This document shows positions 18,289 through 23,572 of a stretch of 64,000 bases of DNA, piece by piece. Below the pieces are notes generated by a model. It made no database searches. It was not told where the DNA came from and worked only from the letters and a program-made list of their open reading frames with translations. Origin of the DNA: an uncultured delta proteobacterium (GTDB lineage Bacteria > Desulfobacterota > BSN033 > UBA1163); contig CAWHBU010000003.1 of NCBI GenBank assembly GCA_963827685.1, forward strand, positions 512,001-576,000, given 5' to 3'. Numbering within the stretch: the first letter of the stretch is position 1; each line of letters opens with the position of its first letter. Made by a program: the position numbers and the translations under genes.

Positions 18289-18918
18289 TTATACCCTCTT
18301 TAATAAATACGTCTTGTGAGGAACTTTGGTTTGCCAGAGGTGCTCTGGGCCTGTGTTGGTCGTTGCCACATCCCTGGCAAGATCGATTCCTACCGCAAGA
18401 TACGCCTCCTGCACGAAGGCTGAACAGTAAAGCGCATGCTTTGTATTCCAAAGGTTGCGCCATTTTTCGGTCCCGGATAGATAGGCGAATAATGTGCCGA
18501 AGAGTCCGGAAATAGAGTACATGATCTTCTTTTTAACCATGTCGAGCGCCTTCTGAACTATTTTATCGGCGTCTGGATCGCTCAACCCGAAATCGAGAAC
18601 GGCGCAGTGCAAAGCCTTTTCCGTCCCATAGTACTTATCGATCCTGTTCTCTTGTGCACCGTTGATGATCCGCATCCGGAACAATTCCACAGTGATGTCG
18701 GACTCTGCAATCCAATCGTGGCCGTCGGGTCTCTTGCCCGTGAAGAGAAAAGCATGTGCCCACAGACTCGGCTTCTTGTCAGGCGTGACCAGTGCCTGCG
18801 CCTCACAGATAGCCCGATGGATCCACGATGTTCCTCCCACCAGCCCGACCGCACCCTTCCTCGCATACCGCTTCCAGAATTCTTCCCTTGAAACCCCTTC
18901 AATCTCTTCTATAGACAT
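18289..18918 (-). CDS. permuted NlpC/P60 (YiiX/YebB-like) papain-fold amidase
   Basis: His motif (WAHA) N-terminal of Cys motif (LYCSAFVQEAY) and terminal P..L. Confidence 0.75.
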   Translation of the reverse strand: MSIEEIEGVSREEFWKRYARKGAVGLVGGTSWIHRAICEAQALVTPDKKPSLWAHAFLFTGKRPDGHDWIAESDITVELFRMRIINGAQENRIDKYYGTEKALHCAVLDFGLSDPDADKIVQKALDMVKKKIMYSISGLFGTLFAYLSGTEKWRNLWNTKHALYCSAFVQEAYLAVGIDLARDVATTNTGPEHLWQTKVPHKTYLLKRV

Positions 18919-18951: not shown

Positions 18952-19116
18952 TTATTTTGAGTGGGCCCAAAGAGATGGTCTTCAATCCAAAGTGATTAGG
19001 CTCTGCGCCTCCCTGATGGCCATGCCAATCATGTCTTTAGCCCCTACAATTCCGATGATTCCCGGCTCATAATTGCTCGTAAAAAACTGAAGGAGCCGAG
19101 GATTTAATTCCTCCAT
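18952..19116 (-). pseudogene. truncated paralog of the adjacent permuted NlpC/P60 gene
   Basis: translates MEELNPRLLQFFTSNYEPGIIGIVGAKDMIGMAIREAQSLITLD*RPSLWAHSK*, matching GAVGLVGG...AICEAQALVTPDKKPSLWAH. Confidence 0.75.
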
Positions 19117-19246
19117 AACTTACCCTCCATTGGGAGTCAGGCCATAAACCGGGTTGCCACGCCTGCGTGCCGTAACGCCTTCTGCGCAGATACGCCGTCA
19201 ATCCAGATGCTTCTCGTTTAGTTTAATGGGAGATCAAATTGCGGAA

Positions 19247-19279
19247 GGCTCTAAGGGAACGGATCTACCCCTTAGAGCC
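19247..19279. terminator. 11-bp stem hairpin overlapping stop of micro-ORF A
   Basis: ggctctaaggg-N11-cccttagagcc; weak U-tract. Confidence 0.55.
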
Positions 19280-19319
19280 AGAGCCATTGCCAGGGCATCT
19301 TTTGGTAGGACCTTTTCAT
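19272..19319 (-). CDS. micro-ORF A, MKRSYQKMPWQWLWL (15 aa)
   Basis: GGAGG RBS 5 nt upstream; paralog of micro-ORF B. Confidence 0.55.
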   Translation of the reverse strand: MKRSYQKMPWQWLWL

Positions 19320-19665
19320 CTTTCCCTCCAAAAGACTGAACTGTAGCAGGAATAAGCGTCCGGAGACTACATCTTCGTTTGTTATCAAATTTCTTGAAGG
19401 CCGATGGTACAACCCACCCTAAGAACGGAACGGACTCTATCAAAATTGTGCAGGGAAGTCAATTAATATTTTTTGCTCACCCCATCCCGCAATATTGTTC
19501 TTGCTAATCCCCAAAGTCAGGTCCCCTTCGGAAGGTCTTTTCTCACCCAAGGAAGCCCCAATCTGTCCTTTTTGAAGGTTCTTTTCTTTCTTCAATCTAG
19601 AAACTTAAAGACTGAACCGTGCATCGAATTCGAAAACTCATTGATTTGCGAAAGTGAAACTATGG

Positions 19666-19703
19666 AAAGCTCTAAGGCAGCACAAGTATCGCCTTAGAGC
19701 TTT
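19666..19703. terminator. 13-bp perfect hairpin overlapping stop of micro-ORF B
   Basis: aaagctctaaggc-N12-gccttagagcttt. Confidence 0.65.
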
Positions 19704-19735
19704 TGCCAGAGCATCTTCTGGAAGGACCTTTTCAT
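19694..19735 (-). CDS. micro-ORF B, MKRSFQKMLWQKL (13 aa)
   Basis: GGAG RBS 6 nt upstream; paralog of micro-ORF A with a synonymous CAA/CAG change. Confidence 0.55.
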   Translation of the reverse strand: MKRSFQKMLWQKL

Positions 19736-19868
19736 CGTTCACTCCAGGAGGTTATAAGCACTAATGGGTTGATGGGTTAATGCTTTAAAAAGTCAACTCC
19801 TTTTTTAGAGAATGCATAAATGATAAGTTACGGGCGATCTCGAAGAGAAAAATATCATTTTATTATAC

Positions 19869-19883
19869 GCAAACCACGTGCCA
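19869..19883 (-). promoter_or_regulatory. sigma54 (-24/-12) promoter
   Basis: minus strand TGGCAC-GTGGT-TTGC, consensus match, facing the micro-ORFs. Confidence 0.75.
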
Positions 19884-20417
19884 GTCATTGGATGTCCAAA
19901 TAAATTGTTGATAACAACCTGATGCTTAAGGTATTTTCCTCTCTCCATCATTTTCGAGAAGCCACCAAAACACAACTAAGGAATTGCCTACTTTAATAGG
20001 CAGTTCATAAGAAAATGGGCAACCCTTCGTGACAGGTACGTCACCCTCGAATCCCGCACTTGGCTAATAAAATTTTCCGACTTTTTGGGTTAAGGTCAGG
20101 GTTACGAAGCCCGTTTCGTACAATGAACGATGGACAATGAACAAAGAAGATAATACACTGTTCATCGTTTATCGTTTAATGTTCATCGTCCCTAAATAAC
20201 ACATGCATCGTCACCCAGAATGGACACAGCCTCATCATACCACAGAAGAGGTTACAGATTGGTAACAGATTCGCAAAAAAATGAGGAATCTTTTTATCTT
20301 GCGTTCTATCGCCTTGAATTCGAGGCTCGCTTCTTTCTTAAGCTCTTGTTTATTTTAACTTTTTCAAGGCGCCCTCTTTCAGGACTCAAGATTCTCCTGG
20401 TAGGCGGAATAGAGAAG

Positions 20418-22066: not shown

Positions 22067-23572
22067 ATGCGATTTCTACTGGTTGATCCACCCCATAAAA
22101 TCTGGACTATTCTTCGAGCCTGGACCCCTTCACCGGGATGCCTCCAATTATTAGCCTATTTGGAAAGGGAGCAATTGGACATCGAATACATGGATTGCAC
22201 CCTTAACGATAATCCCTGGAGGGATCTTGAGGAGAAAATTCGAAGAGAGAAACCCGATGTCGTGGGCATCTCTGTCATCTGCACAGCCTTCCTCTATGAT
22301 GGGATGAATGCGGCCAGTCTGATTAAAGCGGCCAATCCTAAAACGATCATCATCATGGGAGGGGAACATCCTTCCTTTATGGCCGAAGAGACACTCCGTG
22401 ATTGTCCAGCCATCGATTATATCTGTGTGGGAGAGGGAGAGGTCACACTCGCTGAATTTCTCCGCACCGTTGAGAAGAAGGGAGATCTCTCCCGCGTCTT
22501 GGGCCTTGCCTATCTCAATGAGAAAAAAGAATTCGTCTATACCGGTGATCGGCCCTTCATTAAAGATCTCGACACCCTTCCGATGCCTGCCTATCATCTC
22601 GCCAAGATGAATCATCCTTTTGTGACACTTCCCTCGGAAGGAAAAAGAGGGCTCGTGGTCAATTTTTCAAGAGGATGCCTCTGGGATTGCACCTTCTGTT
22701 CAGAATCGGCGTTTTATAGGAAGACGTGGAGGAGACGGAGTCCAAAACTGATCGCCGATGAGCTTGAGCTTCTCAAAGAGAAATATAATAAGGATATCTT
22801 CTATGTGGGTGACAATACCTTCAATGTCCAACGCGAGCAGGGGGTTGGCTTCATCGAGGAGATGCTCAAGCGAAAGACGAACCAGCACTTCTGGTTACAA
22901 TCGAGAGCAGACCTCATTATTCGGGACGGAGACCTGCTCGATGGCTTCCGTGAGGCCGGGGTCTATCAATTTATGATGGGACTCGAATATCATTCTGATG
23001 CCGTTCTCAAGGACATCAAAAAGCACCAAACCACTGAGCAGGCGGTCAAGGCAATGGAGCTTCTGAAAAAACATAAGCTCATGGTCATGGCCACCCTTTT
23101 AATCGGGCACTGGAACGAAACAGAAAAAGACCGTAACGAGTTTTTCAATTTCTTTGGAAAATATGTGGACCATTTCGGCCTGAACCTCATTACCCCTCTT
23201 CCGGGAACCCCTCTTTTTAAACAGATGAAAGAATTGGGAAGGATCAAGGATTGGGATTATCGGAATTATGACTATCTCCATGCCGTGATGTCGGCCAAAG
23301 AGGTGGAAGATCTCGAACAGTTAAACCTCATCTATCGAGACATCATGAGGCGTTACTACTGGCGACCCAGAGAAATGCTCAAGATGTTTTCACCCAATCC
23401 CATTTTGAGGCACCATCACCGATATTACATCACCAAAGTCGCTTTCAACATTATGATGCACGAAGTCTTCGGAACACCGATCTGGGTGCAACCCAACTAT
23501 GAGGAGTATAAAGATTATTTAGTGCAGAGGGGAGAGGCGCTTCCCAAAGAGTTGATGGCTTGGGCCAAATAG
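22067..23572 (+). CDS. B12-binding domain radical SAM protein
   Basis: N-terminal cobalamin-binding fold (GGEHPS, GEGE), SRGCLWDCTFC CxxxCxxC, TPLPGT. Confidence 0.93.
   Translation: MRFLLVDPPHKIWTILRAWTPSPGCLQLLAYLEREQLDIEYMDCTLNDNPWRDLEEKIRREKPDVVGISVICTAFLYDGMNAASLIKAANPKTIIIMGGEHPSFMAEETLRDCPAIDYICVGEGEVTLAEFLRTVEKKGDLSRVLGLAYLNEKKEFVYTGDRPFIKDLDTLPMPAYHLAKMNHPFVTLPSEGKRGLVVNFSRGCLWDCTFCSESAFYRKTWRRRSPKLIADELELLKEKYNKDIFYVGDNTFNVQREQGVGFIEEMLKRKTNQHFWLQSRADLIIRDGDLLDGFREAGVYQFMMGLEYHSDAVLKDIKKHQTTEQAVKAMELLKKHKLMVMATLLIGHWNETEKDRNEFFNFFGKYVDHFGLNLITPLPGTPLFKQMKELGRIKDWDYRNYDYLHAVMSAKEVEDLEQLNLIYRDIMRRYYWRPREMLKMFSPNPILRHHHRYYITKVAFNIMMHEVFGTPIWVQPNYEEYKDYLVQRGEALPKELMAWAK

Follow-up and report, generated by a model that had tools for sequence, protein, structure and literature searches.

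The DNA considered here is a stretch of 64,000 nucleotides (nt), the window, from contig CAWHBU010000003.1 of an uncultured delta proteobacterium of the phylum Desulfobacterota (assembly GCA_963827685.1), and the subject is a pair of short units, B and A, that lie in tandem on its minus strand with a spacing of 416 nt. Each has a mini open reading frame (mini-ORF) of 13 or 15 codons whose Shine-Dalgarno (SD) sequence is enclosed in a hairpin, H1, and whose stop codon falls within a second hairpin, H2. An initial annotation made from the letters alone had described the units as two micropeptide genes faced by one sigma54 promoter, and on rereading the sequence the sigma54-type motif, both units, their H2 hairpins and the stop codons inside the 5' arms were all found where it had put them, H1 being a hairpin that it had not described. 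Judged by comparison with related genomes, the two units are copies of a widespread module so far undescribed, and with moderate confidence this module is interpreted as a translation-coupled transcription attenuator, in which a ribosome finishing the mini-ORF would block H2. The features of the two units, all on the minus strand, are as follows, MFE standing for minimum free energy and bp for base pairs.

19883-19869, minus: sigma54-type motif TGGCAC-N5-TTGC (-24 GG and -12 GC, 5-nt spacer), upstream of unit B
19751-19742, minus: unit B, 5' arm of H1 including the SD, paired by the MFE fold with 19723-19714
19745-19742, minus: unit B, SD GGAG, read from the sequence
19735-19694, minus: unit B, mini-ORF of 13 codons and TAA, MKRSFQKMLWQKL, codons 5-8 being the 3' arm of H1 (19723-19714)
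19703-19691 and 19678-19666, minus: unit B, arms of H2, 13 bp with a 12-nt loop, 100% complementary
19462-19457, minus: unit A, -35 of a sigma70-type promoter with a 17-nt spacer and a TG-extended -10 ending at 19434, from alignment
19335-19323 and 19310-19298, minus: unit A, arms of H1, 13 nt, 85% complementary, from the MFE fold
19329-19326, minus: unit A, SD, inside the 5' arm of H1
19319-19272, minus: unit A, mini-ORF of 15 codons and TAA, MKRSYQKMPWQWLWL, from sequence and alignment
19279-19269 and 19257-19247, minus: unit A, arms of H2, 11 bp with an 11-nt loop, from sequence and MFE fold
19204-19246, minus: conserved tail 3' of unit A H2, pyrimidine-rich and then an A/U-rich box, from alignments

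Single-sequence folds place both H1 and H2 in the minimum-energy structure of both units. The MFE of H2 is -18.9 kcal/mol in unit B and -21.5 kcal/mol in unit A, and that of the H1 region of unit A, where the AUG (19319-19317) sits in the loop and codons 4-8 make up the 3' arm, is -11.9 kcal/mol. The stop codons (19696-19694 in unit B, 19274-19272 in unit A) both lie inside the 5' arm of H2. Relative to unit B the mini-ORF of unit A carries a 6-nt in-frame insertion, and the two units are 86% identical over 51 nt of SD and ORF and 81% identical over 21 nt of 3' arm and tail. BLAST of each unit against the 5.2-Mb genome returned only the unit itself and its partner (88.6% over 44 nt, E 1.8e-6), the remaining matches being 22 nt or shorter with E of at least 0.11. 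This specificity, together with same-frame relatives elsewhere in the genus and an excess of sigma54-type motifs in the genome, puts the pairing of the two units beyond chance. Between the units (19521-19587) there is also a pair of 23-nt direct repeats with 74% similarity and a distance of 44 nt, each containing a small palindrome.

A DNA search of 41 related genomes revealed clear same-frame units in seven of the 14 other genomes of the genus, one in each, with the peptides MKRFFQKILYPYCKL, MKRFFQKIPWQKL, MKRLIQKILYCKL, MRRPFQKIPYQKL, MKRSFQKIPWQKL, MKRSFQKILYIYC and MKRSFQKILFIYSKL. A covariance model (R1) built from nine units of the genus then found matches, frequently many in one genome, in 30 of the taxonomic family's 55 genomes; 60 further places were fetched and confirmed with the model, and 88 distinct copies from 30 genomes were aligned. 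Five of the 93 model matches are left out of the 88-copy counts, three because the core search missed them (L036 and L088, both with such an ORF, and L035, a partial match without the ORF half), the others being L066, which is partial and lacks the start codon, and L063, which is identical to L062. A second model (R2), built from the 88 copies, gave 264 matches in 41 of the 55 genomes of the order (here equivalent to the family), 303 matches in 51 of the class's 68 genomes (26 at most in a single genome), and matches in 13 of the 150 other sampled genomes of the phylum. The E-values of the covariance models are rough, and the copies are mutually related, so the counts do not represent independent events.

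In the genome that holds the window R2 found six matches, five of them with E no higher than 1.5e-13, and these five are the two window units and three further copies, at C2:699842-699989 (plus), C3:911470-911625 (minus) and C1:271072-271231 (plus). The ORFs of the three are 26, 10 and 28 amino acids (aa) long and their divergence is beyond the reach of BLAST. Across the family, units are often found in co-oriented local arrays in which unit and gene alternate at intervals of 2-5 kb (for example G024 C7:55172, 57629 and 59754; G049 C15:187895 and 190091; G064 C17:15161 and 17088), a pattern suggesting that module and gene have spread jointly through tandem duplication. No Rfam family came near its gathering score, either in the window between 18800 and 20400 or at five loci with typical copies, the best overlapping hit reaching 22 bits against a cut-off of 55, and full-text literature searches, which did not cover supplementary files, found no description of the element.

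The order of parts in the module is promoter, leader, H1, mini-ORF, H2, tail, A/U-rich box and the ribosome-binding site (RBS) of a co-oriented gene. The leader is a G-poor, C/A-rich segment of about 60 nt. In H1 the SD occupies the 5' arm, the AUG the loop and codons 5-8 the 3' arm, and directly after the ORF comes H2, with only the outermost pair columns 133-134 between stop codon and stem in 79 of the 88 copies. Over the 88 copies H2 is 90.4% paired, with changes on both sides in 10 of its 11 pairs (pair 135-173 is CG in 39 copies and GC in 36), and H1 is 81.7% paired with double changes in five of 10 pairs. The covariation score of 0.309 compares with 0.235 for shuffled alignments, was reached by none of 500 shuffles and was lower in every slid register. 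H2 thus covaries strongly and H1 more weakly. H2 has a median MFE of -19.9 kcal/mol (shuffled -6.4) and H1 one of -8.6 kcal/mol (shuffled -4.6). After H2 there are at least five T in 9 nt in 40 of the 88 copies. The A/U-rich box (columns 201-215 of alignment A5; 19231-19204 in unit A) is moderately conserved 15-25 nt beyond H2, and in the subfamily to which the window units belong it resembles the loop of a 4-5-bp hairpin with compensating changes in the stem.

Several other pairings were considered and rejected. The 5' leader and the 3' arm of H2 are 68.8% paired without covariation, nor do the last two bases of codon 3 covary with the Pro codon's first two. One single-sequence fold showed a long-range closing helix, which on alignment is broken in G006, G010 and G004. 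The small hairpin after H2 is paired in only 50% of cases family-wide; an antisense RNA had been proposed from a small stem with the sequence ccagR-gcatct-tYtgg, and the alignment gave that idea no backing, since the stem is not retained in relatives.

The mini-ORF follows the consensus M-[KR]-[RW]-x-[FY]-Q-K-[MV]-P-[ILV]-stop, is 10 aa long in 44 copies and does not exceed 17 aa in 73 of the 88. Its start is ATG in 83 copies and GTG in five; each column of the GGAG is retained in 72-85 of the 88 and the 6-nt gap to the AUG is free of insertions and deletions in 87. The K or R found at codon 2 in 79 copies is spelled in five ways, codon 7 is K in 82 (AAG 63, AAA 19), codon 8 is M in 45, V in 28 (GTG, GTA or GTT) and I in nine, the P at codon 9 of 72 copies draws on all four of its codons (29, 18, 13 and 12), and codon 11 is a stop in 47 (TGA 32, TAA 11, TAG 4). 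The ORF region measures 33 nt in 79 copies, and eight of the nine others differ by multiples of three (30 nt, 36 nt twice, 39 nt four times and 45 nt), whereas single-base differences in length occur in leader, loop and tail. Held-out copies, which come from other families and classes and were not used for R2, also keep start codon and frame, in nine of 10 and in 20 of 20 cases. The module thus has a short ORF with SD and start codon 5' of a co-oriented gene, and the prediction of the initial annotation that homologues would keep ATG, frame and RBS was borne out. Taken together, these patterns make it quite likely that the mini-ORF is translated. A further sign that had been offered for coding, the synonymous CAA/CAG change between units A and B, exists but is ambiguous, because the same base is one side of an H1 pair: the difference is mirrored by a U/C difference on the opposite arm, and the corresponding pair 66-109 is UG in 30 copies, CG in 23 and UA in 21. 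The site is thus not clean coding evidence.

The reading that would dispense with translation altogether takes the module to be a cis-acting structured RNA leader, in which a protein or small RNA bound to the C/A-rich leader or the loop of H1 sets the state of H2 and translation of the mini-frame is irrelevant. It draws on the covariation of both hairpins, on codons 5-8 being constrained by pairing, on codon 3 flipping between R, W and G with its last two bases fixed, on the conservation without any coding role of the C/A-rich leader and the box after H2, and on the 15 of 88 copies without a nearby stop. It does not readily account for the AUG or GUG that all 88 aligned copies and 29 of the 30 held-out ones have at a fixed 6 nt downstream of GGAG, for length changes in multiples of three in eight of nine length variants, for a Pro codon with all four third bases and third-base variation in the K, Q and V codons, or for the occurrence of all three stop codons at one position. 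Moreover, mutual information revealed no further RNA pairing that would account for the conservation of loop and linker. This alternative is regarded as unlikely.

What lies behind the units bears on how they act. Among 80 units the ORF filling the 750 nt downstream was co-oriented with the unit in 73, opposite in six and absent in one, whereas the upstream side split 16 to 11 in orientation, with none in four of 31; the gene downstream usually starts about 0-150 nt from the end of the module. The skew towards co-orientation on one side only argues that the units act in cis. The 85 downstream proteins match 72 different Pfam families; among the 25 families listed are nucleotide cyclases (five), C1 peptidases (three), cupins (three), CMD (three) and periplasmic binding proteins (two), and several of the proteins are class III nucleotide cyclases. 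By a crude test of hydropathy, 42 of the 85 (loci L009-L098) have a hydrophobic N-terminal segment, about twice the frequency among long ORFs of the genome (494 of 2049), which hints at a bias of unit-led genes towards exported or membrane proteins.

The same observations bear on the idea that the units are stand-alone short genes, giving a transcript of about 150 nt that ends at H2 and acts in trans as a small RNA, as a peptide of 10-15 aa, or as both. A promoter of its own and a terminator-like hairpin in every module would suit such genes, as would the retention of the peptide consensus across the phylum and the absence of a gene between unit B and the promoter of unit A; for Sinorhizobium trpL an attenuator RNA and leader peptide with action in trans are reported, as far as the available record goes. 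The 73 of 80 co-orientation with the following gene, against 16:11 upstream, and the usual start of that gene about 0-150 nt past the module speak for a role in cis, however, and up to 26 diverged copies per genome would be unusual for a single trans-acting product. Stand-alone action is therefore considered improbable.

The translation-coupled attenuator fits these findings best, and each unit would then be a self-contained promoter and leader module that gates the gene behind it through translation of the mini-ORF. Transcription would start about 60 nt before the AUG and run through the C/A-rich, G-poor leader, after which H1 would fold, with the SD enclosed in the 5' arm, the AUG placed in the loop and the 3' arm made up of codons 5-8. 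If no ribosome initiated, the G+C-rich H2 would form after the ORF and the transcript would be stopped or strongly damped. A ribosome that opened H1 would translate the 10-15 codons and end at a stop adjoining H2 or lying in its 5' arm, and its footprint would prevent H2 from folding, so that RNA polymerase could continue into the gene. The anatomy and conservation of the module, the covariation of H2, the preservation of start and frame and the co-orientation are observed directly; translation of the ORF, termination at H2 and relief of H2 by translation are what we infer from them. The geometry is that expected for occlusion, with the stop adjoining the stem in 79 of the 88 copies or, in the window, inside its 5' arm. 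The proposal of ribosome-coupled attenuators in the initial annotation is supported in this respect, as the family anatomy (SD in a hairpin, a kept frame and a stop at a covarying H2) fits it, although the Trp sensing attached to it does not.

The setting of the switch may depend on the opening of H1 or on how long the ribosome dwells at the end of the ORF. Candidates for the former are temperature, a factor on the C/A-rich leader and the supply of free ribosomes; the conserved peptide and a rare codon before the stop hint at the latter. The codon in question (columns 125-127) is ATA, CTA or GTA in 54 of the 88 copies, and these are the rarest Ile, Leu and Val codons in the genome of the window (12%, 5% and 13% of their families), so that they could mark a pause site or merely reflect a preference at the level of the RNA. 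A bolder extension, regarded as unlikely, is that the nascent ten-residue peptide is itself a sensor that slows release at the stop in response to a small molecule or a signal of translation state, to which the rare codon could add a programmed pause, and that it governs, across the phylum, a regulon in which each genome has 5-26 accessory genes, with exported proteins enriched among their products.

A number of observations weigh against the attenuator reading. Fewer than five T occur among the 9 nt from the stem base in 48 of the 88 copies, the window subfamily has only 2-5 T in the 10 nt past the stem and unit A only four, a weak U-tract; H2 is perhaps not an efficient intrinsic terminator everywhere. 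In 15 of the 88 aligned copies, and in six of 20 and two of 10 held-out copies, the ORF runs through H2, being in the aligned copies at least 20 aa long or without a stop in the stretch read, which implies that the exact position of the stop is not obligatory. The subfamily that includes the window units (15 of 88) has a sense codon at position 11, and its ORF extends three codons to a stop inside the 5' arm of H2; similar stop-in-stem variants recur in other lineages. Peptide conservation is partly explained by the RNA, because codons 5-8 double as the 3' arm of H1 and codon 3 swaps between R, W and G with its last two bases unchanged. No clear overall three-base periodicity of conservation was seen in the 88-copy alignment, one held-out copy (L122) has a +1 nt shift after the AUG, and one weak copy has a -2 nt gap and an early stop. 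A candidate antiterminator would join the SD arm to the 5' arm of H2; 85.3% of cases allow this pairing, but it showed no covariation beyond that of shuffled alignments. Finally, no common pathway emerges from the downstream proteins, nor do they share a function that would point to a signal.

Two further ideas fare worse. In the first the module is an amino-acid-sensing attenuator that reads Trp, or aromatic, codons beside the stem, a proposal that rested on the three Trp codons of unit A and the one of unit B, all near H2. Codon 10 is W in only eight of the 88 copies, there are no runs of the codon, units of the same genus have Y, F, C, I or Q at the Trp positions, most copies stop after a codon 10 for I, L or V, and none of the 25 of 72 downstream Pfam families listed is for aromatic amino-acid biosynthesis, so that sensing of this kind appears very improbable. 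That the units encode precursors of ribosomally synthesized and post-translationally modified peptides (RiPPs), or small toxins, is scarcely credible: the peptides are short, conserved and present in several copies, and a gene for a B12-binding radical S-adenosylmethionine (SAM) protein does lie 2.3 kb off (22067-23572), as had been pointed out in suggesting a RiPP, but it is encoded on the opposite strand, past an enoyl-CoA hydratase gene, and shows no linkage to units in other genomes, no conserved modifying enzyme or exporter accompanies the units (Radical_SAM occurs once in 85 downstream proteins), 10 residues are too few for leader and core, the neighbours differ at every locus, and a basic peptide of 10-15 residues without a membrane-spanning stretch, beside which no conserved antisense element was seen, does not look like a toxin.

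The promoters of the window units also differ from the arrangement first described, in which one sigma54 promoter faced both. Unit A has a sigma70-type promoter of its own, conserved in seven of seven A-type units of the genus (unit A and 6/6 relatives), so that the sigma54-type motif would directly serve unit B only. Family-wide, where the promoter is likewise of the sigma70 type, a -35-like 5-mer peaks 100-91 nt before the AUG (32 of the 88 copies) and is found between -115 and -80 in 52. The motif upstream of unit B has the -24 GG and -12 GC at canonical spacing, and a transcription start near 19857 would be predicted from it, that of unit A being expected at about 19427; the genome encodes an rpoN ORF of 483 aa and holds 27 copies of the 10-base motif against 8.6 expected from base composition. 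The motif is also kept at the matching alignment position in G003, where its spacer has one change and it lies within a stretch of 215 nt that is 83% identical. A 64-nt segment between the motif and unit B (19768-19832, minus) is missing from G003. It contains a -35-like hexamer (19796-19791) resembling the sigma70 promoters of other copies, without a matching -10, and has the appearance of a promoter in decay. The divergent intergenic region also contains, about 240-300 nt upstream of the motif, a long A/T-rich inverted repeat (about 20117-20188) with a 12-bp outer stem and -25.3 kcal/mol as RNA. It is possibly an activator site, and has no alignable counterpart in G003.

Beyond unit A two features need to be added, both on the minus strand.

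18982-19116, minus: gene relic, 44 codons from the N-terminal end of a p209-like gene and then a stop, from tblastn
18289-18918, minus: first intact co-oriented gene downstream, 209 aa, a paralogue 33-38% identical to the unit-led gene of relatives

Different genes stand behind the genus units: three genomes have one for a p209-like protein of 215-228 aa, two have a papain-family C1 peptidase and one has an amidohydrolase. By tblastn the relic is 66-75% identical to the N-termini of the intact 215-228-aa genes that stand behind the unit in G002, G006 and G012, and it is the remnant of the gene originally led by unit A, the window's orthologue of those genes. The similarity runs on beyond the stop of the relic and reaches the start of the intact 209-aa paralogue. 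That gene had been labelled NlpC/P60, but its Pfam hits, hints of a papain fold, are all sub-threshold (Peptidase_C92 E 0.069, NLPC_P60 E 0.13); the protein has no sequence match in PDB. Behind unit A and the relic comes a cluster that comprises the 209-aa ORF together with a Metallophos and a PASTA protein. No gene belongs to unit B itself, which reads on into the promoter of unit A, and the tandem arrangement appears to have arisen through duplication and loss of a gene. On the attenuator reading the window would hold tandem modules, with unit B driven from the sigma54-type motif and unit A from its sigma70-type promoter ahead of the relic and the co-oriented cluster.

The interest of the module lies in the placing of one conserved element before dozens of unrelated genes, whereas known leader-peptide attenuators belong to single operons and respond to the amino acid or drug with which the operon is concerned, and in the conservation of a peptide consensus across an uncultured lineage of anaerobic sediment bacteria. 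If the interpretation is true, a regulon and a global signal would be defined in organisms whose regulation is almost unknown, the module could mark real promoters and gene starts for annotators of these metagenome-assembled genomes, and a compact natural part for coupling translation to transcription would become available. If the peptide is a sensor, it would be a new arrest peptide.

In the classic attenuators (trp, his, phe, ilv) a leader ORF is followed by a terminator hairpin and the position of the ribosome decides the folding. The module resembles them in having a short ORF, here predicted to be translated, in a 5' leader ahead of a terminator-type hairpin. It differs in that it has neither a run of sensed codons nor matching biosynthetic genes among the downstream families listed, in that its peptide is itself conserved across the phylum with the SD locked in a hairpin, and in being present in 5-26 copies per genome before unrelated genes. 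The sense of the switch would also be reversed, for in trp a ribosome at the stop favours termination whereas in the module it would prevent it. TnaC acts through Rho and senses tryptophan. With sensors of the TnaC type the module shares a short conserved peptide, and control would be exerted where translation of the leader ORF terminates, with an effect on downstream transcription; the consensus is phylum-wide as expected of an arrest peptide, but codons 5-8 are also an RNA stem and codon 3 changes non-conservatively.

Three other systems can be set beside the module. For Sinorhizobium rnTrpL and peTrpL the available portion of the record indicates that a terminated leader transcript and a peptide of about 14 aa can function by themselves, in a sequence and context unrelated to those of the module. 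The MsrDL leader of mef-msr in streptococci controls msrD and is a very short ORF that ends beside a terminator, the same geometry as that of the module; according to the part of the account available, a ribosome held at the end of the ORF obstructs the Rho-independent terminator and the gene is transcribed (PMC10314930). That leader senses macrolides and controls a resistance gene, whereas the module has an unrelated peptide, is chromosomal and multi-copy and precedes diverse genes. In E. coli, as given in the available part of a study with a tR2 reporter, placing the stop codon 5 instead of 28 bp before the terminator lowered termination from about 90% to less than 10%, and termination was restored without translation (PMC4824070). 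The relation of stop to hairpin there is that of the module, but in an engineered construct and not a natural family. A stop codon pressed against a hairpin is the geometry of both the E. coli reporter and MsrDL, as far as these sources go, and an H2 blocked by the ribosome would be the simplest reading of the module.

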